Assembly (NCBI GenBank): GCA_035528115.1 | Contig: DATKZF010000001.1 | Coordinates: forward strand, 92,508-156,507 | DNA length: 64,000 nucleotides | Direction of reading: 5' to 3' | Origin: Candidatus Bipolaricaulota bacterium | GTDB lineage: Bacteria > Patescibacteriota > Patescibacteriia > UBA11705 > DATKZF01 | Shown: piece by piece, positions 9,888 through 52,960 of the stretch | Numbering within the stretch: position 1 is the stretch's first letter | Layout: each line of letters opens with the position of its first letter | Program-made: the position numbers and the translations under genes | Notes under the pieces: model-generated | What the model was told of the DNA's origin: nothing | The model's database searches: none | Seen by the model: the letters and a program-made list of their open reading frames with translations, nothing else

Positions 9888-9890
9888 AAT

Positions 9891-9950
9891 GTTACGAATT
9901 ACAATATTCTTAAGCATAAAGCTACAAATGGATGTAATTTGTAAGAATAT
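9891..9950 (+). repeat. MITE-like repeat, short form (R1)
   Basis: GTTACGAATTACAA, then attcttaagcataaagctacaa, then gatgtaatttgtaagaatat. Lies between two convergent genes. Confidence 0.6.
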
Positions 9951-17460: not shown

Positions 17461-17594
17461 GTTACGAATTACAAGATTCTAGTTGGATTTTAGGTAATTT
17501 GTTACTAATTACAAGATTCTTAGGCATAAAGCTATAAGTTCATGTATTTCGTAACAACCGCTTGGAAGCTAAATAGAAGAATGTAATTCGTAAC
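17461..17594 (+). repeat. MITE-like repeat, 134-bp form (R2)
   Basis: GTTACGAATTACAA at the 5' end and AATGTAATTCGTAAC at the 3' end. The internal blocks (attcttaggcataaagctataa, aaccgcttggaagctaa) are shared with R7. Confidence 0.7.
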
Positions 17595-23743: not shown

Positions 23744-23997
23744 GTTACGAATTACAATAATCCGTTAGGCCGATTAATATATTTTACAAATTACATTCAC
23801 CTATAGCTTTAAGCCTGAGAATCTTGTAATTCGTAACAGATAACCTAAAAGCTTAATAGAATATTGTAATTAGTAACAAATTACTCATTACTATTTACTG
23901 ATCACTGAATTTATAAATTTGTAACCATTAGTAACGATTTATTAAACCAAAAATTAAGGCTAGTATAATAGCCGCAATAATTCGTAACGTGTAACGT
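23744..23997 (+). repeat. MITE-like repeat, composite (R3)
   Basis: A 94-bp unit (23744-23837) with perfect 14-bp TIRs GTTACGAATTACAA/TTGTAATTCGTAAC, followed by degenerate half-sites. It abuts the ATG at 23998. Confidence 0.7.
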
Positions 23998-30456: not shown

Positions 30457-30482
30457 ACTTCCATTATACTCTTAAATTAGCT

Positions 30483-30530
30483 GTTACGAATTACAATCTT
30501 CTCAGGCTATGAAAATATTGGATAGCCAAA
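30483..30530 (+). repeat. MITE-like repeat, short form (R4)
   Basis: GTTACGAATTACAA, then tcttctcaggctatgaaaatattggatagcc (a 6-bp-stem hairpin). Lies between fmt and def. Confidence 0.6.
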
Positions 30531-35446: not shown

Positions 35447-38077
35447 TTATGAAAAATTGATTTTGCCATCGCTAAAATCAGCCGTAACGGTTTTTTGTTC
35501 ATTGATTTTATTGGTAACAATGCGCATGGCCAATTCATCCAAAATCTCATTTTGAATAACTCTTTTAAGCGGTCGAGCTCCATAAGCGGGATCAAAACCT
35601 TTTCGTGTCAAAAACTCCTTTAATTTATTCGTAAATTCTATAATGATCTGTTTTTTGGCCAATCTTTCCTTTATTTTAACCAACTGAAGTTCAACGATCG
35701 ATGCCAAATCGCTTTTAGATAAGCTTTCAAAGACAATAATATCATCAACTCTATTTAAAAATTCCGGTTTGAATCTTTCTTTCAGTAAATCCAATACTTT
35801 ATTTTTCATATTATCTCTCGATGAGGCTTTGTTATTCGCTTCGGCAAAGCCTATTTCTCCGCGCTGCGCCATTTGCAAAATCAAATCACTGCCGATATTT
35901 GAAGTCATTATAATAACCGTATTTTTAAAATTAACCACTCGACCTCGAGAATCGGTCAATCTGCCGTCATCTAACAATTGCAAAAGGGAATTGAACACTT
36001 CCGGATGAGCTTTCTCGATTTCGTCGAACAAAACCACGGAATACGGTTTTCTTCTGACCGCTTCGGTCAATTGTCCGCCTTCCTCGTGTCCGACATAGCC
36101 CGGAGGGGAGCCGATGAATTTGGCCACCGAGTGCCGCTCCATGTATTCGGACATATCGATTCTGATCATGGCGTTTTCGTCATTGAACATGAATTCCGCC
36201 AAAGCCTTGGCCAATTCGGTTTTACCCACGCCCGTCGGACCCAAAAAGATGAACGAGCCTATTGGTCGAGACTCTTCGGACAAGCCGGCTCGCGAACGTC
36301 GCAAGGCGTTGGCTACGGCGCCCACGGCTTTTGTTTGCCCGATAACTCTTTTTTGCAATTCCATTTCCGCATCCGCCAATTTTTCTATTTCGGATTGAAG
36401 CATTTTGGTAACGGGAATGCCGGTCCATTTCGAAACCACCGCGGCAATATCCTCGGCAGTGACCTCTTCTTTCAATATTTGCTTGCCGCCGGGGCCGGTC
36501 TGGAATTTAGCCAACGCTTCTTTTTGAGCCAAGATTTCCTTTTCGAGTTCGGGTATTTTGCCGTATCTGATCTCGGCCACCTTGTCGTATTCGGACTTTC
36601 TTTCCAAAATCTCCGCTTCTTGTTTTAATTTTTCAATTTCTTTGCTGGCTTCCTGAATTTTGGAAATGATTTCCTTTTCTTTTTTCCAATGAATTTCCAG
36701 CTGATTGGAAGATTCCTTCAATCCCGCCAATTGCTTTTCAAGTTCAGCCAATTTGGCAACGGAGTCTTCGTTTTTTTCCTTGCTTAAAGCCTGCTTTTCG
36801 ATCTCCAAGGTTTTAATCTTTCTTTGCAATTGATCCAATTCGTCAGGCATGCTGTTAATTTCAATTCTAAGCGCGGAAGTGGCTTCGTCAATCAAATCAA
36901 TGGCCTTATCAGGCAAAAATCTGTCTGAAATGTATCGTTGAGACAAGGCCACGGCCGAAACAATGGCGTCGTCAGTGATTCGCACGCCGTGATGGACTTC
37001 ATATTTTTCTTTGATGCCTCTTAAAATGGAGATGGCGTCTTCGCTCGACGGCTCGGAAACCAAGACGGGCTGAAATCTTCTTTCCAGCGCCGCGTCTTTT
37101 TCAATATATTTTCGATATTCTTTGATGGTCGTGGCGCCGACGCAGCGCAATTCGCCTCTGGCCAAGGCGGGCTTTAGCAAATTTGAAGCGTCCATGGCTC
37201 CTTCCGTGGCTCCGGCGCCGACAATGGTGTGGAGTTCATCGATAAAAACGATGAATTTATCTTTATTATTGTGAATTTCTTTCAAAACCGCTTTCAACCG
37301 GTCTTCGAATTCGCCGCGAAATTTGGAACCCGCGATCAAACTGCCCAAGTCAAGAGCGATGAGTTCTTTATTGGCCAAATTTTCCGGCACATCGCCTGAG
37401 ACGATTCGTTGAGCCAATCCTTCGGCAATGGCCGTTTTACCCGTGCCGGGCTCGCCGATCAATACCGGATTGTTTTTCGTTCTTCTGGATAAAACTTGCA
37501 GCACTCGTCTGATTTCGTCATTTCTGCCGATAACCGGATCCAATTTTTCTTCTCTCGCCAGCTGAGTTAAATTAACGGTGTATTTTTCCAAAGCTTGGTA
37601 TTTATTTTCCGGTTCTTGATCAGTGACCTTTTGCTTGCCCCGCACCTCGGATAATATTTTCAATACTTGCTCGTATGAAATTTCATTTTCAAACAATATT
37701 TTTTGCGCGTCGCTATCCACGTTGATCAGTGTCAAAAACAAATGCTCGGTGCTGATGAATTCATCACCCAGACTTTCCGCCATCTTTTCCGAATTGCCCA
37801 GAACGTAATTGAAAGCGGGGGAGACCAGCAATTGCCCGGCTTCGTTCGCCGTTTGGCCTTTCGGCAGGGCCCTGAGCGCGTTTTCGGTCGAAGCGATGAT
37901 GGCGTTAACGTTTTTATCCAATTTTTTTATGACCGTCAAAACAATACTGTCGTTTTGCTTAAGTAAAGCATACAAAAGATGCAGGACGTCCAATTGAGGA
38001 TTCTTGTATTCGAAAGCCGCATTTTGGGCGTTTTGAAGCGCCTCCTGAGATTTTATGGTGAATTTGTTGATATTCAT
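35447..38077 (-). CDS. clpB: ATP-dependent chaperone ClpB
   Basis: Two AAA+ modules (GEPGTGKT and GPTGVGKT) with a coiled-coil middle domain. 876 aa. Confidence 0.95.
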
Positions 38078-38127
38078 AAGGTTACAAATAATTATTTCGA
38101 GTAGGACAAGCTTGGTTGTGGTTTTTC

Positions 38128-38146
38128 GTTACGAATGGTTACAAAT
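38128..38146 (+). repeat. Degenerate MITE-like half-site (R5)
   Basis: GTTACGAAT-ggtt-ACAAAT, upstream of clpB. Confidence 0.35.
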
Positions 38147-38223
38147 AGTATGCGATCGTCGATTTTGTCACAAATTATATAGTATTTAGCACTCTTGATA
38201 CATGACTGCTAATATATTGTACC

Positions 38224-38250
38224 AAATAAAAAATGCCTGTCAAGGCATGC
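38224..38250 (-). terminator. Intrinsic terminator
   Basis: Reverse complement reads GCCTTGACAGGC followed by TTTTTT. Serves the radical-SAM gene. Confidence 0.5.
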
Positions 38251-38303
38251 GTCACATAACACGTAACATGAATCATCAAACATGGGGAGACCGATACTTC
38301 TTT

Positions 38304-39311
38304 TTATAAAACAAACGGCAGTTCTATCCCGCATTTTGGACAAACTTTGTTATTTCGATACTTTTCTTCAATAATATACCCGCGGCGCAAAATCAAAAGC
38401 TCTCCGCATTCGGTGCAATAAGTGTCTTCGTATTTTGAAGTTTTTAAATTGCCCGCATAAACAAAACTCAAATCATTATCCTTGGCGATGCGAATGGCGT
38501 TTTCGATCGAGCTTTCCGGCGTCGGTGGCAATGAATCCAATTTGTATTCCGGACAAAAAGCGGTCAGGTGCCAAGGGGTGTCACTGCCCAAATCAAAACG
38601 GATGAATTTGGCCATCTTGGAAACCTCTTCGTCCGAGTCGTTTAAGCCAGGGATGAGCAAAGTGGTAACTTCCAAATGAACTTTGGATTTGGACACTCTG
38701 ATCAGCGAGTCTTTGACATGTTTGAACTTGGCTCCGCAGATTTTGTTATAATTATCTTCCGTAAAAAATTTCAAATCAATGTTTATGGCGTCCAAATACG
38801 GTTCAATCAATTCAAACGTTTCCTTGGTGAAATACCCGTTTGATACCCAAACATTGAACAGTCCCTCTTTTTTGGCTTGTTTCATAACTTCCAGCGCGTA
38901 CTCGACGTAAATCGTCGGCTCGGTGTAAGTGTAAGCGATGCTTTTACAATTCAGGCTTTTTGCGGAATTGACCACTTGCCAAGGAGCCACGTCTTCTCCG
39001 GGAATTTCATCGAGCGGAGAAACTTGAGATATTGAATAATTTTGACAATGCAGACATCTAAAATTACAGCCCACGCTGGCTATCGAGTAAGAGAGAGATC
39101 CGGGCAAAAAATGAAACAGCGGCTTTTTCTCTATAGGATCAACATTTTGCGAAATCAATTTGCCGTAATTCAAACTGAAAAGAATGCCGTCAATATTTTG
39201 CCTGACCTGACACAAGCCTTTTTGGCCAGGATTGATTAAACAACCTTGCAAGCAATTGAAACATTTTATGGAGTGTTCTTTTGAGTTCTCCCAATTAATG
39301 GCTTCCTTCAT
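38304..39311 (-). CDS. AmmeMemoRadiSam-system radical SAM enzyme (PflA-like activase family)
   Basis: N-terminal Cys cluster (KCFNCLQGC...GLCQVRQN) plus SVGCNFRCLHCQNY (CxxxCxxC). Confidence 0.8.
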   Translation of the reverse strand: MKEAINWENSKEHSIKCFNCLQGCLINPGQKGLCQVRQNIDGILFSLNYGKLISQNVDPIEKKPLFHFLPGSLSYSIASVGCNFRCLHCQNYSISQVSPLDEIPGEDVAPWQVVNSAKSLNCKSIAYTYTEPTIYVEYALEVMKQAKKEGLFNVWVSNGYFTKETFELIEPYLDAINIDLKFFTEDNYNKICGAKFKHVKDSLIRVSKSKVHLEVTTLLIPGLNDSDEEVSKMAKFIRFDLGSDTPWHLTAFCPEYKLDSLPPTPESSIENAIRIAKDNDLSFVYAGNLKTSKYEDTYCTECGELLILRRGYIIEEKYRNNKVCPKCGIELPFVL

Positions 39312-39325
39312 AAATTATAAAGACG

Positions 39326-39366
39326 TTACGAATTACAATATTCACAAACATCGTAATTTTACTTAT
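39326..39366 (+). repeat. MITE-like repeat, short form (R6)
   Basis: GTTACGAATTACAA, then tattcacaaacatcgtaatttta. Upstream of ligT. Confidence 0.55.
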
Positions 39367-39447
39367 ATTTACACTGGCGCTGATTTAGGATATAATTAAA
39401 TACAATAATATTATATCAAAATTGAGATATAATTGAAATAGACGAAT

Positions 39448-39987
39448 ATGCGTTGCTTCTTGGCGATTGAAATACCTCAAAATGTAAAAAATCAAATTTT
39501 CGCCATGGTGAAGGAATTAAAGTCTTTGAATACTGAAAACCGGATAAAATGGACATCGCCCGACAATATGCATCTGACCATGCAATTTATCGGCGAAGTG
39601 GAGTATGATCGACTTGAAGCGGTCAAACAATCTTTGAGCAACATAAAATTCGCGCCGTTTGATATTGAATTTGACTTCAGGCCGAGCTATTTCCCGAATA
39701 AGACCAATCCTAACATTATTAAATTATCAATCATAAAAGGCGACCATGAACTTAAAAAAATCAATGAGTCCATCAAGGCCGGGCTGGACAAAGAGGGGAT
39801 TGAGTATGAAAAAAAGGATTTTTCTCCCCACCTTACATTAGGCCGAATAAAATATTTGAACGGGGAGTTTAAGGAAATAACTATTAGTAAAATTAACGGG
39901 TTTACTGTTCGGAATTTCAATTTATATTGCAGCGATTTGACCGAAGAAGGCCCCATTCACACCAAGCTGGCACAATTTAATTTATGA
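39448..39987 (+). CDS. RNA 2',3'-cyclic phosphodiesterase / 2'-5' RNA ligase (LigT/ThpR, 2H family)
   Basis: Two HxT motifs (HLTMQF and HLTLGR). Confidence 0.8.
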   Translation: MRCFLAIEIPQNVKNQIFAMVKELKSLNTENRIKWTSPDNMHLTMQFIGEVEYDRLEAVKQSLSNIKFAPFDIEFDFRPSYFPNKTNPNIIKLSIIKGDHELKKINESIKAGLDKEGIEYEKKDFSPHLTLGRIKYLNGEFKEITISKINGFTVRNFNLYCSDLTEEGPIHTKLAQFNL

Positions 39988-41192
39988 AAAAATACGATAA
40001 AAATATTTCCACGATTTTGGGCGTAAATATTTCCCTCGATAATAAAAGCGAAATATTATTTAAGATCGGAGAATTTTTAAAATCAAAGACCGGGCATAAA
40101 ATTTATACACCTAATCCGGAAATCTGCTTGCTGGCGAACAGAGATCATAAATTCAAAAAATTGTTGAATTTTGCAGACATCAATATCGCGGATGGCTTCG
40201 GCCTTAAGGTTGGCGCGGCCATTTTGGGTCAAAAAATTCCCAATCGCCTGACCGGCGTGGATTTAACTTGGGATATCTTAAACATAGCCAGTCAAAACGG
40301 TTATCGAGTTATGCTGCTCGGCGGAGCCGGCAAGGTGGCCAAAACAGCGGCGAAAAACATTAAACAGCAACTGCCAAACATCAACATCGTGGGCGCGGGC
40401 GAGGGGATTGAAATAAAATATCAGCGCGGAAGCATTGCTTATGATATCAATAAAAACAATAAAGTCTTGGATTTTATAAATAAGGCTCAAGCAGATATTG
40501 TTTTCGTGGCTTTTGACGCGGCCAAGCAAGTTTATTGGATCGATCAAAATTTATTGAAGCTCAAAACCGTCAAACTGGCCATGGGAGTGGGTGGAACATT
40601 TGACTTTATGGCCGCCAAAGTAAAAAGGTCTCCAAGCTGGCTGAGAAAAATCGGTCTGGAATGGCTTTTCAGATTGCTGAAACAGCCCAAACGAATCAAA
40701 AGAATTCTAAACGCCGTAATTGTTTTTCCACTGATCTGCTTAAAATGGAGAATAGGCTGGCTCTGCAAATATAGACCGAATCTGCTCAACATTATCTACA
40801 ATAAAAACAATGAAATTTTATTGATGCTTAATCCCAGATTCAATTACTGGACATTGCCTCAAGGCGGGGTGGAAAAAAACGAGGATTTGCGCTCAGCGGG
40901 CAAAAGAGAATTGAATGAAGAATTGGGTTTGCCCGAAGATAAAATCGAATTGATAAAAATCCTGCCCGATGAATACAAGTATGACTGGCCCGACTGGGCG
41001 AGATTAAAACAGCCATACAAAGGCCAGAAACAAAAATTCGCGCAATGGAGATTTATGGGCGAGGAAAATGATTTCAAATTCAGGCGCTCGGATGAAGCTC
41101 AGAAAATACAGTGGGTCAAGAAAGAAAATATTTTCAAGGTGCTGGCCAAAGTGAGGCAAGAAACGATTAAAAAAATCTTTGATAAAATTTAA
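39984..41192 (+). CDS. Fusion protein: WecB/TagA/CpsF (GT26) glycosyltransferase plus C-terminal Nudix hydrolase
   Basis: N-terminal GT26-like domain. The C-terminus carries the Nudix box GGVEKNEDLRSAGKRELNEELGL. Confidence 0.7.
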   Translation: MKKYDKNISTILGVNISLDNKSEILFKIGEFLKSKTGHKIYTPNPEICLLANRDHKFKKLLNFADINIADGFGLKVGAAILGQKIPNRLTGVDLTWDILNIASQNGYRVMLLGGAGKVAKTAAKNIKQQLPNINIVGAGEGIEIKYQRGSIAYDINKNNKVLDFINKAQADIVFVAFDAAKQVYWIDQNLLKLKTVKLAMGVGGTFDFMAAKVKRSPSWLRKIGLEWLFRLLKQPKRIKRILNAVIVFPLICLKWRIGWLCKYRPNLLNIIYNKNNEILLMLNPRFNYWTLPQGGVEKNEDLRSAGKRELNEELGLPEDKIELIKILPDEYKYDWPDWARLKQPYKGQKQKFAQWRFMGEENDFKFRRSDEAQKIQWVKKENIFKVLAKVRQETIKKIFDKI

Positions 41193-41197
41193 AATTC

Positions 41198-41331
41198 GTT
41201 ACGAATTACAGTCATCTTTTAGGCTTTCAGGTTATTTGTTACAAATTACAATCTTCTCAGGCATAAAGCTATAAATGAACGTACTTCGCAACAACCGCAT
41301 AGAAGCTAACCGGAAGAATGTAATTTGTAAC
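41198..41331 (+). repeat. MITE-like repeat, 134-bp form (R7)
   Basis: GTTACGAATTACA at the 5' end and AATGTAATTTGTAAC at the 3' end, collinear with R2. It abuts the GC-rich islet. Confidence 0.7.
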
Positions 41332-41348
41332 TTTTTTAAAATACTGAA

Positions 41349-41378
41349 CCCGCGAAGAATGACCTCGCGGGTTTTTGG
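41349..41378. terminator. Bidirectional terminator
   Basis: ACCCGCGA-agaatgacc-TCGCGGGT followed by TTTTT. Confidence 0.5.
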
Positions 41379-41413
41379 GTAGGATTTGGGGGTGGGTGAG
41401 TTACCGGTGGGAA

Positions 41414-42733
41414 CTACTTGCCGCCGTTCACGAGCTTCAGGCGCACGCGGACGGAGCCGGAAGCGACCTCGGAAGCCGCGCGCTGGAGCTTTCGCTCGTT
41501 CGCGCGCTGGAAGCGATTCCACAGCCAGCTCAGCGTGGTGCTGAGAGGCTGAGCCTCCGCCTCAACCTCGATCCTGCTTCCATCGCGGAAGCGAGAATCC
41601 TTGAGGCCGGACTTTCTGGCCAGCGCCACGGCCATGGAGGCCTCGCTCGAGTGGAGGAGAACGACCCGATCCTTGTCCTTGACCTTGAAGGTCATGACGA
41701 GAATCGGGCAGACGTCCATGCCCGCAATGGCGTCCGGGTGAGGGCCGAAACCGGTCGGGAACAAGCCGCTTTCGACGCAGAAGGCAACGATCTCCTTCCA
41801 GTCGAACACCGGCCATTCCACCCGATCGCTCGGGTGTGCGAACCTCTCGGTCTCCGAGTTTTCGAAGACCTCCTTGAGCCGCCGCATGAGCTCGAACGGC
41901 TCGAAGTTCAGCGGGTCGCTCGACTCGAGGCGAGCGACCACCTTCGCCGTCTTCTCCTGACGCTTCTTGTCGCGGCCGGCCATGTGCTTGGCCAGCCGGA
42001 ACAGATCGGCCGCTCCGTCCTCGAGGCGGTCGAAGACCAGATCCTTTCGGACCTGGCAGATCGCCACCGCGTTCAAGCGGCCGAGGATGGCGAATCCGGG
42101 CCGTCCGGTCGCCCGCGACACGAGAGCGAAGTCGCGCTCGCTCTTGTCGAGCGCGAGCGCTTTGGCGCGCTCGGCCAACCTTTCGGGGTTGAGCTTGCCC
42201 TTGCCGACGATGTCGTCGCCGAGAGCCTCGGTCATGGCTTCGGCCGAGAGGAACTTCCCCTCGCCGGAAATAGCCGCCTTGACCTGCTCCTGCCGAGCGG
42301 CCCAGGCCAGAGGGTTGATGAGCGGTACGATCTGCCGCTGATCGATCTTGGCCTGACGGCTAATGCCCAGCCGTCGCGCCTCTTCCTTGTCGCGCGCGGC
42401 CAGCACCGCGGCCGCGCACTTGCGGTGGTAGATGTCGCCCTCGCCCTTGACAACGAAGGCTTCTGACACGGAGATGACACCTGTCATTTCCGCCTTCCGG
42501 CACACTCTGCAGTGCACCTTCAGCTTGTCTAGGGGGAGCGAGACCTTGCGGTCATCAACTCCCGACTTTATTAGGTGGGTGATCTGGTCCGGGCCGGAAA
42601 TGGTCGTCTTGCCTTCCTCGCCGATGAAGGTCACCGGCAGGATCTCGTTGTTCCCGTTCTTGACCGCCACGGTCGTGCCGTGGAATGCGATCACCTGGGC
42701 CACAGTCTTCAATTCCTTAGTCGCCATGATCAT
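41414..42733 (-). CDS. GC-rich 439-aa hypothetical protein (foreign-looking)
   Basis: Marked GC enrichment across 41340-42830 between AT-rich flanks. Composition is protein-like (K/E/A/R-rich), and AAGGAGC precedes an ATGATCATG start. The antisense ORF 41375..42466 looks like a GC-shadow ORF. Confidence 0.55.
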   Translation of the reverse strand: MIMATKELKTVAQVIAFHGTTVAVKNGNNEILPVTFIGEEGKTTISGPDQITHLIKSGVDDRKVSLPLDKLKVHCRVCRKAEMTGVISVSEAFVVKGEGDIYHRKCAAAVLAARDKEEARRLGISRQAKIDQRQIVPLINPLAWAARQEQVKAAISGEGKFLSAEAMTEALGDDIVGKGKLNPERLAERAKALALDKSERDFALVSRATGRPGFAILGRLNAVAICQVRKDLVFDRLEDGAADLFRLAKHMAGRDKKRQEKTAKVVARLESSDPLNFEPFELMRRLKEVFENSETERFAHPSDRVEWPVFDWKEIVAFCVESGLFPTGFGPHPDAIAGMDVCPILVMTFKVKDKDRVVLLHSSEASMAVALARKSGLKDSRFRDGSRIEVEAEAQPLSTTLSWLWNRFQRANERKLQRAASEVASGSVRVRLKLVNGGK

Positions 42734-42989
42734 GCTCCTTGCCCGACCTCGCGGGCTTTTCTGGGTGTTCTCGAATCTGGCCGATCTTGCGATCGGATTA
42801 CTCGCGCTTTAATGCTTGCTTAGCGGAACTTTTTGGCAATATACTAAATAATCGTTCGGCTTTTTCGCCGAATCGAACATTAAATAATATCACATTTTAC
42901 TCAAAAAGTCAATATAGTGCTTATTTTTAAGCTAATTTTAGCGAATTTTAAAAACATTTCATTTAATCAACCGATTTTAACAGCTAAAA

Positions 42990-43018
42990 TTGACAGCGGG
43001 GGATAGCTGGCTTATAAT
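42990..43018 (+). promoter_or_regulatory. Consensus sigma70 promoter TTGACA-N17-TATAAT for gltX
   Basis: ttgacagcgggggatagctggcttataat. Confidence 0.55.
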
Positions 43019-43046
43019 TATAAACAAGTGTTTATAGCTTAAAATT

Positions 43047-44576
43047 ATGGAAAACAAACCCTATTCAAAGGTAAGGGTGCGCATAGCGCCAAGTCCGACA
43101 GGATTCGTGCATATCGGCAATTTACGGACAATTTTATATAATTACCTGTTCGCCAAACATTATGACGGCGATTTTTTGGTTAGAATCGAAGATACGGATC
43201 AATCAAGATACGTGGAAGGCGCGGTGGAAAATTTACTGAATGTTTTGAATTGGACAGATATAGAATACGATGAAGGGCCTTTTTTGACTGAAGGAAAGAT
43301 AGCTCAAAAAGGGGAGAGCGGACCGTATTTTCAATCCGAGCGTTTGGATATTTACAAAGAACATATCGCGCATTTGATTGACAGCGGCAAAGCCTATTAT
43401 TGTTTTTGCGACAAAATCCGTTTGGACAATTTGCGGGAAGAGCAAGCAAAAAATAACCTGCCGCCAAAATACGACAATCATTGCCGTCATTTAAGCAGGG
43501 AGGAAATTGAAAAAAAATTAAACAACAAAGCGCCTCATGTGATCCGTTTCAAAATGCCGGAGGAAAAAGATATTGTAATCAATGATGAAATTCACGGGAC
43601 AATAACGGTCAACACAAAGGATTTGGACGACTATGTTTTAATCAAATCCGACGGTTTCCCGACCTATCATTTCGCCAATGTCATTGACGATCATTTGATG
43701 AAAATAACGCATGTTCTACGCGGAGACGAATGGATCCCCAGCACGCCCAAGCATGTGTTGCTTTATGAAGCTTTCGGTTGGCAGCCTCCGATATTCGCTC
43801 ATTTGCCGCCACTGGTCAATAAACAAAAAAAGAAGTTGAGCAAAAGGGAAGCGTCGGCTTCTGTCCATGATTTTATGGACAAAGGTTATTTGCCCGAAGC
43901 ATTGATTAATTTCATCGCTCTTTTAGGCTGGAATTCCGGGTCGGATCAGGAAATTTTCACCATGCACGAATTAATCAAACAGTTTAATCTGGACAGAGTG
44001 CATAAAAGCGCGGCGGTTTTGGACGTGGACAAATTGGACTGGATGAACGGCTATTACCTGAAACAACTCACGGTTGAAAAATTCATGGCCATGGCTCTGC
44101 CTGTTTTGGAAAAAGCCGAATTGATCGCTTTGACCAAAAAGGAGTACAAGGTTCTCGAAACCAAAGAAAAATTGACATATCCCGTGTTGAAACAAATTAT
44201 AGAATTGGAGAAGAACCGCGTTAAAAAACTTTCGGATTTGCCCGAGGCTTTAAAATATTTCTTTGTGGCGGATATTGATTATGATGTAAAAAGCCTTTTA
44301 TGGAAAAAGAACACCAAGGATTCCACTGAAAAACATTTGAGCGCCTTGCTTAACTTTCTGTCGAAATTGAAAACCGACGACTTTTCCGTAACCCGCTTGG
44401 ATTCGCTGATCAAAAATTTTATTCAGGAAAATAGCTTCGAAAACGGGGATGTTTTGTGGCCGATGAGAGTCGCTCTTTCTGGCAGACAGGCTTCTCCGGG
44501 ACCGTTTGAAATAGCGGCCGCTCTGGGCAAAAAGAAAACCATTGCCAGAATCAAAAAAGCCATTTCCATGCTTTGA
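43047..44576 (+). CDS. gltX: Glutamyl-tRNA synthetase
   Basis: HIGH (PTGFVHIGNLRT) and KLSKR motifs. 509 aa. Confidence 0.95.
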   Translation: MENKPYSKVRVRIAPSPTGFVHIGNLRTILYNYLFAKHYDGDFLVRIEDTDQSRYVEGAVENLLNVLNWTDIEYDEGPFLTEGKIAQKGESGPYFQSERLDIYKEHIAHLIDSGKAYYCFCDKIRLDNLREEQAKNNLPPKYDNHCRHLSREEIEKKLNNKAPHVIRFKMPEEKDIVINDEIHGTITVNTKDLDDYVLIKSDGFPTYHFANVIDDHLMKITHVLRGDEWIPSTPKHVLLYEAFGWQPPIFAHLPPLVNKQKKKLSKREASASVHDFMDKGYLPEALINFIALLGWNSGSDQEIFTMHELIKQFNLDRVHKSAAVLDVDKLDWMNGYYLKQLTVEKFMAMALPVLEKAELIALTKKEYKVLETKEKLTYPVLKQIIELEKNRVKKLSDLPEALKYFFVADIDYDVKSLLWKKNTKDSTEKHLSALLNFLSKLKTDDFSVTRLDSLIKNFIQENSFENGDVLWPMRVALSGRQASPGPFEIAAALGKKKTIARIKKAISML

Positions 44577-44623
44577 GAAATTATGCTATAATATTGTCAG
44601 CGTAATATTCACTCAATTTTGAA

Positions 44624-45898
44624 ATGGAAACAAAAACAAAAGGGTTGATTAAAATTTGCGCGATCGCGGCGATAATCGGTTTATTCGCCAATTTTGGTTT
44701 TGCCAGAGCGGATATAGACAGCGAAATCAATGACATTAATTCCCAAATAAAAGACAAACAAAAAACCCTGGAATCATTGAAAAAACAAGCTGATTCTTAT
44801 CTTGATAATATTAATGCAAAACAAAACGAAACGGTCAGTTTGCAAAATCAATTATCAATACTTGAAAATAAGATCGCCAAGGCGGAAATAGATATTCAAA
44901 CCACGGAAGCCACCATTGAAAAAACCCAGCTTGAAATAAAAGACGTGGCGATTCAAATTTCAAACAGGGAAGCGGATATTCTAAAAAAAGACGACGAACT
45001 CCAAGAATTGGTCAGATTATTGTATAAATCGGATCAACAGGGGACACTGCAAATATTATTGGCCAATGACACCTTGTCCGACTTTTTCGATCAAGTTAAA
45101 CACACCAAATCATTGCAAGGAAACCTGCAGAACTCATTGATTTCCGTCAAATCATACAAAGCTCAATTGGAAAGCAAAAAAGATACTTTGAATAAAAAAA
45201 ATGATGAGTTGGACAAGTTAAGGAAACAAGCTGAGCAGCAAAAAATAGCTTTGCAAGAAGAATTGGATTCCAAAGGATATTTATTGAAAGAAACGAAAAA
45301 TTCCGAAGAAAAGTTTTACAATTTATACTGGCAAACCAAACAGGAACAGCAAAATTCCAGCGCGGAAATTTATTCATTGGAAAAAGAAGCGAGATTAAAA
45401 CTCGAAGAGTTGGAAAACAAAAGAAAAGAAGCCTCCCCATCAAAAACGGAGTCCGGATTTAAGCCTTTGAGCGATTCGACCATAATGTGGCCGATCAAAG
45501 ATATTTCCAGAGGCATTTCTGCCACTTTTCACGACCCGACTTATCCGTTCAGACATTTGTTCGAGCATCCCGGCATCGATGTCAGGGCTTATCAAAGCAC
45601 GGCCATATACGCGGCATCCGATGGTTATGTGATATCAGCCAAGGATAACGGCTATGGCTACAATTATATTTCAATCATGCATGCCAACGGCATTTCCACG
45701 GTTTACGGCCATGTCAGTAAAATTCTGGTCAAACCGGATCAATATGTCATCAAGGGGCAACAAATAGGCCAAACCGGCGGCATGCCCGGCACGCTTGGAG
45801 CGGGCAATCTGTCCACCGGGCCTCATCTTCACTTTGAAGTCAGATTAAACGGTATTCCGGTCAATCCGCTGGATTATCTGCCGGATATGGGATTTTAA
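44624..45898 (+). CDS. M23/LytM-family peptidoglycan metallo-endopeptidase with an N-terminal coiled coil (EnvC-like)
   Basis: Signal peptide, a long coiled coil, then a C-terminal HxxxD...HLHFE M23 domain. Confidence 0.8.
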   Translation: METKTKGLIKICAIAAIIGLFANFGFARADIDSEINDINSQIKDKQKTLESLKKQADSYLDNINAKQNETVSLQNQLSILENKIAKAEIDIQTTEATIEKTQLEIKDVAIQISNREADILKKDDELQELVRLLYKSDQQGTLQILLANDTLSDFFDQVKHTKSLQGNLQNSLISVKSYKAQLESKKDTLNKKNDELDKLRKQAEQQKIALQEELDSKGYLLKETKNSEEKFYNLYWQTKQEQQNSSAEIYSLEKEARLKLEELENKRKEASPSKTESGFKPLSDSTIMWPIKDISRGISATFHDPTYPFRHLFEHPGIDVRAYQSTAIYAASDGYVISAKDNGYGYNYISIMHANGISTVYGHVSKILVKPDQYVIKGQQIGQTGGMPGTLGAGNLSTGPHLHFEVRLNGIPVNPLDYLPDMGF

Positions 45899-45920
45899 TA
45901 AATAGCAAAATAAATAAAAA

Positions 45921-45947
45921 ATCGCCTCAAAAAGGCGTTTTTTCTTT
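45921..45947 (+). terminator. Intrinsic terminator
   Basis: CGCCT-caaaa-AGGCG followed by TTTTTT. Confidence 0.6.
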
Positions 45948-45955
45948 TAAAATGA

Positions 45956-46229
45956 TTCAGCCGTCCACTTGTTAGCAGACGGCTGAAAATGTCGTAGAGT
46001 CCGACCAAGATCTGCCATCACTCGATGGCTTCACTCAGTCGGCGCCGCCGGGTCACTCGGTCAGGTCGCGTCGCGCTGGCCGTCACGATGCCGTCGTCGA
46101 GGCACAGACATTTGGAACCGTATGCCGAAACAGCGACTCACTGGGAACCCTCCATGGCTTTCCTCCTTGCCATGTGAGTTTTAGACACCCTCGCACACCT
46201 TTGTGCAAGAGATCCAAAGAAAAGAACTG
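45956..46229 (-). ncRNA. Candidate structured RNA or leader transcript (unclassified)
   Basis: Bounded by the minus-strand promoter at 46236-46263 and the hairpin TCAGCCGTC...GACGGCTGA (45957-45986). GC-rich with several 6-bp hairpins. No ORF of 60 aa or more. Confidence 0.3.
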
Positions 46230-46235
46230 ACAACA

Positions 46236-46263
46236 TTATAGCAAATATTTATATATTGTCAAT
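46236..46263 (-). promoter_or_regulatory. Consensus sigma70 promoter (TTGACA-N16-TATAAT), near-palindromic and possibly bidirectional
   Basis: Reverse complement reads ttgacaatatataaatatttgctataat. The plus strand reads CTGACA-N17-TATATA. Confidence 0.5.
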
Positions 46264-46338
46264 AGCCAGAAGGCATTATTGATGTTTTTTATCTTATTTT
46301 AGACAAAAAATCAAAATTCATCCATTACATTTAAAATT

Positions 46339-46556
46339 AAAAAACCGTCCGCTCAAGAGCAACGGACGGTCAGGTTGTGGGCGCCACTTGGTGGACGCCG
46401 GTTGCCGGTTTCGGAGCTCTCCCGAGAGACGCTCCAGCCCAACGGACAGGACCAGAACCAGCACATCGAGCTATCTTTCGCTCTTCCAACCTAACGCTAG
46501 TCCATTTTTTTGGCCAACAGCTGAAGCGTTAGGGCGCTTGCGAATTAGCTCGATGG
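46339..46556 (-). ncRNA. Candidate structured RNA of about 215 nt (unclassified)
   Basis: Runs from the minus-strand promoter TTGACG-N17-TATTAT (46561-46590) to the terminator CCGTCCG...CGGACGG plus U-run (46339-46370). Long-range pairing CATCGAGCTA...TAGCTCGATG, and GC-rich hairpins. Confidence 0.35.
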
Positions 46557-46560
46557 CATA

Positions 46561-46590
46561 ATAATATCAAACATCGTAAAACCCGTCAAG
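46561..46590 (-). promoter_or_regulatory. Sigma70-like promoter TTGACG-N17-TATTAT
   Basis: Reverse complement reads ttgacgggttttacgatgtttgatattat. Confidence 0.5.
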
Positions 46591-47229
46591 TATATCAATA
46601 TTTGCATTTCGTGGGTCATAAAACTCAAAAACCATGGGGGATAGCAAAAATTTGTCTATAATTTGAAATGAGCGATATTATTTACAACAAGTTAAGAAGA
46701 AGGAAAACAAGCAGCCGTTGATTTATTATTTATTTAATTGTCTTTGCTTCAAGCTCAGATTTTGAGATTCAGGCGGGGAGAGTAGCGCTCATCGCATTGG
46801 ATTGGAGGATATGAAGCGTCGCACAATATACCTTATGCGACACATTAACCAACTTTCCTTGGGCTATGTGTCGCATAAGGTTCGCATATTTTGCAACGCT
46901 TGCGGTGCAATCTCGCAAAATATGCGTAATAGGCCTTAAAACGCAATTTTGAGCCTCGCTTTTGGTCTATTTTGTGTTAATATTATTGACTTAAACGAAT
47001 CTTCAACAGAAAAAAATTTCAGCTCCTTTAAGACATTTAAAATTTAAAAATCCGGATTTGCCATCCGAACCCTTTTTCCATGATTTATTTTTTATTTTCT
47101 ATTACTTAATACTCGTTACCTATTGCTGGTTTATAAAAACCCATTTCCCCATTATCTTCATCGCTCTCTCCCACTATGCGTCGCAAAACATGATACCAAA
47201 ATTTTAGCAACCGGATTAACTTGAAATAT

Positions 47230-48066
47230 CTATTGATAAAACACTTTCTCCCCGAAACGCAGGTCAATATAGTTCAATCTGTCCAGCTTGTCCGAAAGCC
47301 CCTCTTCCCTAATCAATAGATTCAACCTCTTCAGTTGATCGGTGATGCTCAGCTTTTGGTTGAAGTATATCTCAAACCCTTTTTCGGTCATCACTCGAAG
47401 ATCCGAATTTGAATCGGAAATTTGCTTAAATGTCTTTACCTTGTTGCCTTGGCCTTCCAACTGGTCATTCAATTCAATGATATAGTTTATTTCCTCCGAC
47501 GACAGTACATTGTCTCCCACGCCGACGCTCTTATCCCCTTCAAATCTGATTTGAATAAACTCGGAGCTTCGATCATTGCATTTCTCAACGATATCTCCCT
47601 TAATATCTATATTAAAACAATTTTCCTGCGTGATGTAAGCCAAGGTGGAAACTTTTTCTTGTAAAATTATTGACACATAGGCGGGATGAAAGCTTTTTTG
47701 AATTTCTATCCATTCCAATAAATAAGTTTGAGCTATTTCACTCTGCAGATCATTGATATTGAACAAAAAAACATTATTATGTTTGAATAAAACCCCTCTT
47801 TGCATCTCCTGCTTGACTATGTTATCGAAATCTTCATTTTTAATGTATTTCAACCCAAAAATCTCCACTTGCTCTATTCTAAAATAAGAAGACAGATAAA
47901 AAAAATAAACAAACGCCATGCCTAAAATAATAACCGCGATCAAGGTTATTATCAAATTTTTCTTTTTCAAAACTTTCCCGTCTCTGACCTTTTTCGGATT
48001 TTGATAATTGGACACGACAAAATCCTTTGACAAGTGACTTTTGTTTTGGTCCATTCTCATAATCAT
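47230..48066 (-). CDS. FtsQ/DivIB-like cell-division protein (single TM plus POTRA-like)
   Basis: N-terminal cytoplasmic tail, one TM helix (LIITLIAVIILGMAFVYFFY), and a periplasmic beta-rich domain. Overlaps the alr stop. Confidence 0.5.
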   Translation of the reverse strand: MIMRMDQNKSHLSKDFVVSNYQNPKKVRDGKVLKKKNLIITLIAVIILGMAFVYFFYLSSYFRIEQVEIFGLKYIKNEDFDNIVKQEMQRGVLFKHNNVFLFNINDLQSEIAQTYLLEWIEIQKSFHPAYVSIILQEKVSTLAYITQENCFNIDIKGDIVEKCNDRSSEFIQIRFEGDKSVGVGDNVLSSEEINYIIELNDQLEGQGNKVKTFKQISDSNSDLRVMTEKGFEIYFNQKLSITDQLKRLNLLIREEGLSDKLDRLNYIDLRFGEKVFYQ

Positions 48067-52801: not shown

Positions 52802-52960
52802 GTTATGAATTACAATCATCTAGTAGGCCGATGAATATATGTTACAAATTACATTCATCCATGGCTTTAAGCCTGAGAATCTTGTAATACGTAACAAATT
52901 ACCTAAAAACTAAATGGACGCTTGTAATTCGTAACACTTTACCCATTACCCTTTACTAAT
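52802..52960 (+). repeat. MITE-like repeat, composite (R9)
   Basis: A 94-bp unit (52802-52895) with GTTATGAATTACAA/TTGTAATACGTAAC, about 85% identical to the R3 unit, plus an extra TIR copy CTTGTAATTCGTAAC at 52921-52935. Confidence 0.7.

Follow-up and report, generated by a model that had tools for sequence, protein, structure and literature searches.

A GC-rich, strongly base-paired gene kept at one position across a clade of AT-rich Patescibacteria

Results

A GC-rich gene lies between the WecG-NUDIX gene and gltX

The window examined here is a 64-kb stretch of DNA from a metagenome-assembled genome (MAG), and our subject is a single minus-strand gene in it, which we call gene A. Gene A lies between a gene for a fusion of a WecG/TagA glycosyltransferase with a NUDIX domain (WecG-NUDIX, 39984-41192) and gltX, and its composition departs sharply from that of its surroundings. 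In 300-nucleotide (nt) windows, the fraction of G+C (GC) is 0.36 at 41100-41399, 0.62-0.67 across 41400-42600, and 0.35 by 42750-43049. The resulting GC-rich islet spans about 41380 to 42820 of a window that is 41% GC overall and in which the highest value of all other 1-kb windows is at most 0.475. The following features of the islet are needed for what follows.

41414-42733, minus strand: gene A (HUT21900.1), a GC-rich protein-coding gene with its stop codon at 41414-41416, recognized from the list of open reading frames (ORFs), its composition and a profile match.
42735-42740, minus strand: AAGGAG, the Shine-Dalgarno sequence of gene A, found in the sequence at a distance of 1 nt (first ATG) or 7 nt (second ATG, 42727).
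41375-42466, plus strand: antisense 'shadow' ORF of 363 amino acids (aa), a codon-aligned mirror of gene A judged not to be a gene.

Gene A as a whole has a GC of 0.636, with values of 0.636, 0.423 and 0.848 at the first, second and third codon positions (GC1, GC2 and GC3). The 45 other ORFs of at least 150 aa in the window have a mean GC of 0.410 (standard deviation (sd) 0.029, maximum 0.487) and a mean GC3 of 0.464 (sd 0.052), placing the GC3 of gene A, 0.85, more than 7 sd away from them. Its codon usage is like that of a high-GC organism and far from that of the host. These scans bear out a first-pass annotation of this DNA, which had described an abrupt switch to a composition unlike that of any other gene in the window and had quoted the run ggcgcacgcggacggagccgg, found at 41440-41460.

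Two start codons are candidates: the first ATG (42733) yields 439 aa and was chosen in the NCBI record, and the second (42727) yields 437 aa and was chosen in the Logan call. Because the Shine-Dalgarno sequence is 7 nt from the second ATG and 1 nt from the first, the 437-aa product is likelier.

The plus-strand ORF had been described as a GC shadow. Its GC1, GC2 and GC3 (0.84, 0.44 and 0.66) mirror those of gene A. The codons CTA, TCA and TTA are depleted in gene A (odds ratio 0.33, p = 3e-7) to the same degree as in 37 ordinary GC-rich control genes (odds ratio 0.35), and a run-length permutation of the antisense frame, a stop-avoidance test of the 363-aa ORF, gave no significance. Since the stop-avoiding bias is no stronger than in ordinary GC-rich genes, we rejected an overlapping antisense gene and retain the shadow reading.

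Gene A carries the marks of a translated gene

Every member of the gene A family found in related genomes (described below) has the pattern GC1>GC2<GC3. The trimmed coding sequences run to 286-569 codons and are intact even at 50-53% GC. GGAGG or AAGGAG lies 5-8 nt upstream of the ATG in 14/14 family members. In aligned blocks, identity at codon positions 1 and 2 is 0.45-0.63, compared with 0.25-0.48 at position 3. By these sequence criteria, namely periodicity, a conserved Shine-Dalgarno sequence with its ATG, and conservation of positions 1-2 over position 3, gene A is shown to be translated. Together with the relatives, the same evidence upholds the earlier call of the minus-strand ORF as a real gene.

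The gene occupies the same position throughout a clade

Loci of relatives (numbered L005, L008 and so on) were collected by scanning a genome collection with a WecG-NUDIX alignment, then by an islet scan, and then by a metagenome scan with gltX. A genome scan with the single WecG-NUDIX protein found nothing, whereas the alignment-based scan succeeded; the gltX metagenome scan added one clade member only (L092). The fusion protein neighboring gene A has many homologues in Patescibacteria.

The three closest relatives, whose WecG-NUDIX proteins are 52-60% identical to that of the window, keep the gene order LigT, WecG-NUDIX (plus), X (minus), gltX (plus), M23 peptidase (plus), in which X is an unannotated minus-strand ORF of 467-547 aa. 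The GC of X against that of its own genome is 0.53/0.34, 0.62/0.44 and 0.55/0.38, in each case with the GC1>GC2<GC3 pattern. In total, the clade carrying gene A comprises 15 genomes, the window included, and one partial locus. Across the 14 further genomes, the ORF has a GC of 0.497-0.695, and the medians of the loci are 0.327-0.467 (window, 0.636 against 0.410). The excess over the gene's own genome is thus +0.11 to +0.34, or 11-34 points, and GC3 reaches 0.95 in a genome of 36% GC (L033). Named members are Falkowbacteria and Kuenenbacteria, of the Patescibacteria/Parcubacteria group.

Relatives whose gltX is 59-73% identical and whose WecG-NUDIX is 37-60% identical have a gene in the corresponding place and orientation, usually followed by a second gene, B. 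Every locus with gltX at least 59% identical holds an insert of 1.6-3.3 kb. By contrast, gene A is absent from about 25 outgroup genomes, whose gltX is 43-49% identical and lies 0-114 bp from the WecG-NUDIX gene, and a GC-rich islet immediately upstream of gltX was seen in 0/65 non-clade control loci. This phylogenetically clean distribution makes a single insertion in the ancestor of the clade the simplest history.

The first-pass annotation had read the segment as an insertion, which the outgroup spacing supports, and as a recent horizontal acquisition, which is contradicted by the same-position genes in relatives, by the profile match described below and by synonymous saturation. It had added that the same gene with host-like composition in relatives would count against its reading; relatives do carry the gene, and its composition in them is again far above that of the host. 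Judged from sequence comparison, the claim of recent acquisition fails: gene A appears to be old, clade-wide and not strain-specific.

Several observations concern the wider set of loci. The WecG-NUDIX fusion is common among Patescibacteria, with 866 proteins found at E up to 1e-30, and the order WecG-NUDIX, gltX, M23 peptidase (window 43047-45898 for the latter two) is kept across very distant group members (L012-L091). In one Falkowbacteria genome (RIFOXYC2_FULL_36_12, L021 11951-14650), the GC-rich zone runs 2.7 kb to the contig end; beside gene A it holds a LexA-like helix-turn-helix (HTH) fragment broken by masked Ns and a PgpA gene with a GC of 0.59 (Pfam E = 1e-41). This zone could reflect a GC-rich segment of larger size, or else a problem at the end of the contig. 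A Kuenenbacteria locus (L016) has a 522-aa minus-strand ORF at 1334-2902 with a GC of 0.52 against 0.40 and no Pfam match. On a non-clade metagenome contig (L120 3601-4500), a stretch of 0.9 kb has a GC of 0.54 against 0.39 and contains no long ORF; lying about 1.5 kb upstream of gltX, it is possibly an RNA gene.

Gene A diverges rapidly and is inherited with a slower partner

Similarity among gene A proteins is limited. The window protein and that of L008 align pairwise at E = 0.11, a match that is marginal but collinear. The proteins of L005, L008 and L010 are mutually significant (1e-12 to 1e-14), and a profile built from these three, with the window protein excluded, scores the window protein at 16.6 bits, compared with 8.9 for the best of 5,000 shuffles; this match is also collinear (profile 313-421 with window residues 309-417). 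A second subfamily (L015, L016 and L023) is internally significant, and the other members are singletons. Detectable similarity tracks the gltX clades. The window gene shares all of the features by which we recognize the family, namely position, strand, GC excess (+0.23), folding excess (z = -4.9, see below) and the profile match.

Gene B encodes about 200 aa with an N-terminal 'FWxxFF' motif and follows gene A on the same strand in 11/14 loci; it is absent in the window, L008 and L027. Its coordinates, all on the minus strand, are as follows.

L005 9248-9826, minus strand: gene B.
L010 3116-3661, minus strand: gene B.
L015 11373-12020, minus strand: gene B.
L016 11230-11955, minus strand: gene B.
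L019 11259-11873, minus strand: gene B.
L023 10821-11492, minus strand: gene B.
L033 11210-11827, minus strand: gene B.
L021 11257-11865, minus strand: gene B.
L087 11349-11948, minus strand: gene B.
L026 11205-11885, minus strand: gene B.
L014 11237-11923, minus strand: gene B.

Searches with B returned no match in Pfam, PHROGs, PADLOC, NCBIfam or the PDB. Across 8 genomes with mostly mutually unrecognizable A proteins, B is homologous (1e-5 to 1e-43; jackhmmer recruited no decoys). Since B can be recognized where A cannot, the module appears to be inherited as a unit in which A diverges much faster than B. The GC elevation of B is mild (+0.01 to +0.18).

In L092, a 341-aa minus-strand ORF (590-1615) adjoins the GC-rich ORF, with a more host-like GC of 0.46 against 0.40. 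We considered it as a paralogue of A because of motifs shared by eye ('LFHR' and a beta-hairpin-like stretch) and rejected it, as it has no statistical similarity to any member.

The GC excess has outlasted synonymous turnover

The proportion of synonymous differences (pS) between gene A orthologues is 0.52-0.78, so that synonymous sites are saturated. Identity at position 3 between the window and L005 is 0.25, with about 0.28 expected by chance from the position-3 base frequencies. Despite this saturation, GC3 is 0.58-0.95 in all lineages. Because synonymous turnover is complete and GC3 is still high, the GC richness is maintained and is not an un-ameliorated relic.

The excess is confined to one gene. 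At four-fold degenerate sites, GC is 0.57-0.95 in A and 0.15-0.71 in the adjacent gltX, and A is the higher of the two in 13/13 genomes. The amino acids glycine, alanine, arginine and proline (GARP) are likewise enriched in A (0.22-0.34 against 0.16-0.21). Along the coding sequence (CDS), GC3 forms a flat plateau (quintile means 0.76-0.82), and no gradient extends through B. Upstream of the A start, GC is 0.27-0.54 in the first 100 nt and 0.17-0.37 in the next 100 nt in 11/14 loci. A box-shaped profile limited to one CDS in 14 genomes favors a gene-specific constraint over a regional effect of recombination.

Gene A is folded beyond what its protein and codon usage require

To measure folding, we summed the minimum free energies (MFE) of 150-nt windows and compared them with those of synonymous-codon shuffles that keep the protein and the gene's own codon usage. 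Gene A gave z values of -0.9 to -6.7 (mean -4.2), negative in 14/14 (p about 1e-6). The controls were close to neutral: six adjacent gltX genes had a mean of about -0.4, twelve ordinary GC-rich genes (GC 0.51-0.70) and ten host genes of the window each a mean of -0.6, and gene B a mean of -1.4. The A transcript thus shows the strongest codon-independent folding signal among the genes tested here. The excess is distributed over the CDS, with 59-82% of 120-nt windows of A at z below -1, and it is gone over the first 120-180 nt in 4/4 A genes examined. Relaxed folding at the start of the CDS is expected for a translated mRNA.

The encoded protein has no recognizable relative outside the clade

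Database searches were negative. A word-index search of 5.8 billion clusters with the window protein returned only itself, and an exhaustive phmmer search of 1.84 billion representatives returned itself and one spurious match, P0002. We rejected P0002 as a homologue, since it is an artefact of a weak 31-residue match summed over 18 tandem adhesin repeats. A word-index search with the A family profile recovered the query members only. Pfam, NCBIfam, PHROGs and PADLOC gave no match for A or B; for PADLOC defense and toxin-antitoxin families, this covers the window protein, five further A proteins and four B proteins. The first-pass annotation had expected matches in high-GC taxa or phages and had thought a phage or plasmid regulatory protein plausible. 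Contrary to both expectations, the protein searches gave no relative outside the clade, and blastn against phages, tblastn against phages and plasmids, and scans of viral contigs found no relative of gene A; the alignment of B is too divergent to use in the viral-contig scan. No integrase or transposase family was matched at the locus in Pfam, PHROGs, NCBIfam or PADLOC, and no tRNA scan was made. Rfam gave chance-level matches alone in window 40900-43300 (E 0.05-0.09, far under the gathering score) and nothing at the gathering threshold in seven relatives. In the literature, we found no description of a clade-wide syntenic gene behaving like A.

The protein itself offers a few hints. The CxxC...HxxC cluster noted earlier near the N-terminus is present in the window protein (C75 and C78, H102 and C105). 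The nearest relatives and L033 have a similar cluster, C...C...C-x2-H, and C75 is invariant in one alignment (A1). A proteins have about 30% charged residues, and the last 30 residues include 7-13 Lys or Arg in 14/15 members; the C-terminal tail is rich in Lys, Arg and Gly in most. At the N-terminus of the L033 protein, a helix-hairpin-helix match has E = 0.0065, under the Pfam cut-off. The L005/L008/L010 profile matches the RadC homologue 2qlc_A over about 105 residues (E = 0.0039, 19 bits), which is marginal. The JAMM motif (E...HxH...S..D) is not conserved in the profile, where HNHPSG of 2qlc stands opposite 'eeeFak', and no A member reaches any Pfam or NCBIfam RadC threshold. Two AlphaFold (AF2) models are poor, with predicted local distance difference test (pLDDT) scores of 33 and 37; the best-supported stretch, residues ~150-260 (pLDDT 53-72), has a beta-beta-alpha-beta-alpha layout in the RadC-matching region. 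Foldseek gave nothing, the winged-helix matches all having E above 1. The segment LGISRQAKID had been called HTH-like; it matches no HTH family at E up to 1, and the structure models are too poor to judge it. Given the Cys/His zinc-ribbon-like cluster, the basic tail, the one helix-hairpin-helix match and a marginal, degenerate RadC/JAB-like core, the A protein is probably a nucleic-acid-binding factor, a suggestion that we put forward weakly. We treat the RadC-like match as a lead and not as family membership.

The junctions recur in independent assemblies

The first-pass annotation had raised the possibility of a chimeric assembly. Over window 36001-48000, which takes in both junctions, the Logan assemblies of runs SRR8554643 and SRR8554512 match at 100% identity, so that the junctions recur base for base in independent assemblies of two runs. 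HUT21900.1, from a contig of 266,694 bp in the NCBI/JGI/ENA record, is the same protein. In all, at least three independent assemblies agree on the two junctions. For practical purposes, misassembly is ruled out. For each of four populations, the independent assemblies agree across A at 100% identity; on this assembly-level ground, we set aside short-term hypervariability of the gene, which we had considered, as improbable. A repeat search found no internal template-like long repeat in A.

The source MAG (the record of HUT21899.1 and HUT21900.1) is labeled 'Candidatus Bipolaricaulota bacterium' at NCBI. All named close homologues of its WecG-NUDIX protein and all syntenic relatives are labeled Patescibacteria or Falkowbacteria/Kuenenbacteria, or else bear generic or implausible labels. 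To judge from these similarities, the NCBI label is probably wrong.

Flanking signals and repeats

The signals and repeats around gene A are listed below.

42741-42872, minus strand: moderately GC-rich 5' leader of gene A with three predicted hairpins (sequence and terminator-like scan).
42756-42741, minus strand: leader hairpin GCCCGCGAGGTCGGGC, found in the sequence.
42797-42782, minus strand: leader hairpin CCGATC-GCAA-GATCGG with a GNRA loop, found in the sequence.
42872-42855, minus strand: terminator-like leader hairpin TTCGGC-GAAAAA-GCCGAA, followed by a U-rich stretch (terminator-like scan).
42884-42912, minus strand: promoter-like site of gene A, made up of TTGACT and TATTAT 17 nt apart, a TG preceding the -10 element (consensus match, 10/12).
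42990-43018, plus strand: promoter-like site for gltX, TTGACA-17-TATAAT, sigma-70-like (12/12 consensus match).
41347-41373, shared by both strands: terminator-like hairpin AACCCGCGAGG...TCGCGGGTT common to gene A and the WecG-NUDIX gene, which converge here (11 pairs, 7 being G-C).
41361-41376, plus strand: left copy of a 16-nt direct repeat, GACCTCGCGGGTTTTT (repeat search).
42745-42760, plus strand: right copy of the direct repeat, GACCTCGCGGGCTTTT, 15/16 identical to the left copy (repeat search).
41198-41331, plus strand: R7, a dispersed intergenic host repeat that recurs elsewhere in the window and contains a 19-nt inverted repeat, GTTACAAATTACAATCTTC.
17461-17594, 9890-9947, 30482-30507 and 39314-39346: further R7 copies or fragments.
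23789-23882 and 52840-52935, minus strand: further R7 copies or fragments.

In the window, GC is 0.54 in the 100 nt upstream of the gene A start, compared with 0.29 in the next 100 nt. Transcription of gene A is predicted to start near 42877. The terminator-like leader hairpin comes directly after the predicted promoter, and the GNRA hairpin lies further down the leader. As predicted structures, the leader hairpins could be an attenuator-type control of gene A.

The earlier description of the boundaries was accurate on both sides: on the left lie the 134-bp repeat R7 and the terminator-like hairpin, and on the right a promoter-like site for gltX. One copy of the 16-nt direct repeat is inside the 3' terminator hairpin and the other inside the hairpin just upstream of the Shine-Dalgarno sequence. 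Its 11-nt exact core exceeds 200 shuffles of the flanks. The flanking repeat is absent in 13/13 relatives examined, and is thus specific to the window genome; for this reason, we rejected it as an insertion scar or a conserved boundary of the family. At least 6 further copies or fragments of R7 occur within the 64-kb window. The R7 family is AT-rich, up to 134 nt long and 77-82% identical between the longer copies, and resembles a miniature inverted-repeat transposable element (MITE) or a repetitive extragenic palindromic (REP) element; no associated transposase was seen. The copy at 41198-41331 sits where most relatives carry gene B. The R7 beside gene A is an ordinary dispersed host repeat without demonstrable role.

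The genes of the window are on the plus strand over 1-28.7 kb and on the minus strand from 29.5 kb, and the cumulative GC skew peaks at this switch (~28.7-29.5 kb). The genes converge there, as they would at a replication terminus or at the edge of an inversion. The genes at 39.4-45.9 kb are again on the plus strand, with positive skew, and gene A is therefore transcribed against its neighbors.

Discussion

Origin and maintenance of gene A

With moderate confidence, we favor the view that A is an anciently inserted, vertically inherited and translated gene in which a directional force specific to the gene, most likely selection on the transcript, maintains both composition and base-pairing. 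We take the comparisons to show a single insertion at the WecG-NUDIX/gltX junction, made in the common ancestor of the lineage that includes the Falkowbacteria- and Kuenenbacteria-labeled genomes. The inserted segment carried A and, originally, the ~200-aa gene B on the same strand, and has been inherited vertically since, with B lost in the lineage of the window. The protein sequence of A diverges extremely fast, and its GC excess and local base-pairing persist. The gene-specific force would hold its composition against the AT-biased background of the host. The likeliest such force, we infer, would be selection for an unusually GC-rich, heavily base-paired mRNA, which might be long-lived, nuclease-resistant or slowly translated in an AT-rich cell.

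Several results weigh against this view or against parts of it. The homology of the two A subfamilies is unsupported by profile-profile alignment (hhalign, E = 0.56), although that alignment picks out the C-terminal hairpin motif noticed by eye, and L014, L027 and L092 are tied to the family by position and composition only. Common descent of all A genes is thus drawn from position, strand, partner and shared properties and is unproven by sequence. The aligned codon blocks were chosen by amino-acid identity, so that dN/dS (nonsynonymous to synonymous rate ratio) values from them are biased. Gene B, probably co-transcribed with A, is only mildly GC-elevated, a difference that a purely transcript-wide constraint does not predict. 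The antisense strand shows a folding excess of the same strength (mean z -4.1); what the test establishes is therefore self-complementarity of the DNA, and the sense RNA as the selected molecule is inferred, the relaxed 5' end being the sole strand-specific hint. These comparisons do not formally distinguish selection from a biased process of mutation or repair. Every hint at the function of the protein falls below threshold, and neither structure model is of good quality.

A different emphasis, tentative and in our judgment rather improbable, is that selection preserves mainly the nucleic acid: a GC-rich, densely paired molecule of 1-1.7 kb that is also translated, that is, a dual-function or 'armored' mRNA. 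Its composition would be far from the mutational equilibrium of the genome, and one possible reason is a need to survive or work while AU-rich RNA is degraded or silent, as in dormancy, under nuclease attack or on meeting a host cell. Constraint on the protein would be loose in that case, and its sequence could diverge beyond recognition while GC, structure, position and frame persist.

The remaining explanations differ from these in where the composition comes from. Sharp GC edges, high-GC codon usage, the lack of a database homologue and a direct repeat of 11-16 nt at both ends are what recent acquisition from a high-GC donor (a phage, a plasmid or a host bacterium) would leave before amelioration. 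We hold this to be highly improbable, given the same position, strand and anomaly in 14 further genomes and one partial locus with flanking genes 37-82% identical, the profile match to relatives, saturated synonymous sites with high GC3, the absence of phage, plasmid or viral-contig relatives, and the absence of the direct repeat in relatives. Young genes could also sit at an old site if GC-rich foreign genes were repeatedly inserted or swapped at an integration hot spot at the WecG-NUDIX/gltX junction. Such replacement would account for most A proteins being mutually unrecognizable, for the non-significant comparison of subfamily profiles and for an L092 ORF that matches no member; by inspection, moreover, the GC of A (0.50-0.70) has no obvious relation to that of the host (0.33-0.47). 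It does not account for detectable similarity that follows host phylogeny, nor for a B that is homologous across genomes in which A is unrecognizable. All A genes share their strand, the Shine-Dalgarno sequence with ATG, ~30% charged residues and, in 14/15, the basic tail, and all have a folding excess that ordinary GC-rich genes lack; the searches run found no relative outside the clade and no integrase or att-like repeats. Hot-spot replacement is therefore disfavored and, overall, unlikely, though it may apply to the singleton members. That the junction joins a fragment of a GC-rich organism to a Patescibacteria contig, through an artefact of assembly or binning, would fit the abrupt change of composition at both ends, and has a negligible chance of being correct: both junctions recur in the NCBI/JGI/ENA record and in Logan assemblies from two runs, 14 other genomes and one partial locus from unrelated studies share the arrangement, and host-type promoter, Shine-Dalgarno and terminator elements abut the ORF.

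Two further explanations accept that the gene is old. GC-biased gene conversion at a recombination hot spot, acting on a gene under diversifying selection, would account jointly for fast evolution, synonymous GC enrichment and GARP enrichment, and B, which adjoins A, is mildly GC-elevated. GC-biased conversion of this kind, with faster protein evolution, is exemplified by mouse Fxy, a gene of the pseudoautosomal region. The profile of A is a box, however, with GC3 flat within the gene, a drop within ~100 nt outside the CDS and no gradient across B, and conversion tracts are not expected to respect the ends of a CDS in 14 genomes. Nor does conversion predict self-complementarity beyond that of synonymous shuffles, and the identical independent assemblies of each population give no sign of allelic diversity, albeit with thin sampling. 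We consider this explanation quite unlikely. Alternatively, the functional product might not be a protein at all but a large GC-rich structured RNA or a hairpin-rich DNA element in which the ORF is incidental. GC, the folding excess (z about -4) and position are conserved clade-wide where the protein sequence is not, the excess is strand-symmetric, and structured RNA genes (rRNA, tRNA and large noncoding RNAs) are classic GC-rich features of AT-rich genomes. This explanation is nevertheless very unlikely, in view of periodicity in every member after sequence turnover, a Shine-Dalgarno sequence and ATG in all, 286-569 intact codons at 50-53% GC, positions 1-2 more conserved than position 3, and folding that relaxes at the start of the CDS; no Rfam match was found in the window and seven relatives.

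Comparison with known systems

Gene A resembles a classical genomic islet with a horizontally acquired ORFan in its sharp GC edge, its single ORF without annotated homologues, its intergenic site beside a terminator and a repeat, and its absence from outgroups. Unlike a recent islet, it is syntenic in 15 genomes and one partial locus of a deep clade and is inherited with a partner gene; its atypical composition has outlasted synonymous saturation, and no conserved mobility gene, attachment (att) site or target-site duplication (TSD) accompanies it. Like structured RNA genes, it has a GC well above that of the genome and is over-paired, with both properties kept while the primary sequence drifts. 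Unlike them, it is translated, has a codon-periodic ORF with a ribosome-binding site, and gives no Rfam match. Codon-shuffling and GC-selection studies describe weak, genome-wide selection for local mRNA structure or higher GC in bacterial coding regions. Gene A agrees with that pattern in that its native mRNA is stabler than synonymous shuffles, as are those of ordinary genes here (mean z about -0.6), but differs in degree (mean z -4.2), in being one gene per genome and in the coupling to a GC excess of 11-34 points.

The 'large G+C-rich genes' (lgr) of Protochlamydia amoebophila are 41-43% GC in a genome of 34.7%, about 6-8 points above it; their codon usage is similar to that of most genes of the genome, and they are recent paralogues with leucine-rich repeat (LRR) domains, interpreted as foreign (PMC2216083). 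Gene A is likewise lineage-specific and more GC-rich than its AT-rich genome (for lgr, that of a symbiont). In contrast to the lgr genes, its excess is 11-34 points, its codon usage is far from that of the host, it is single-copy, and it has no known domain. We also considered the GC-rich ORFans of Mycoplasmataceae as an analogy and rejected it, since the published ORFans have 3% lower GC than other genes and the same GC3. At the protein level, the profile match of ~105 residues and the beta-beta-alpha-beta-alpha layout of the AF2 model recall the RadC-like JAB/MPN domain (2qlc), from which A differs in that the catalytic HxHPSG...S..D motif is not conserved and is aligned to 'EEeFak'.

Implications

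Compositional methods, and readers relying on composition, would miscall A as a recent transfer in every genome of the clade. Genes A and B form an uncharacterized two-gene module specific to a clade of Patescibacteria. What sets bacterial GC content, whether mutation bias, selection or biased gene conversion, is a long-standing question that is usually studied genome-wide, where these forces are confounded. Gene A offers a natural within-genome experiment, in which the same replication and repair machinery and the same population are associated with opposite compositions, the difference being confined to one CDS. Polymorphism spectra at A and its flanks could separate selection from biased repair directly.

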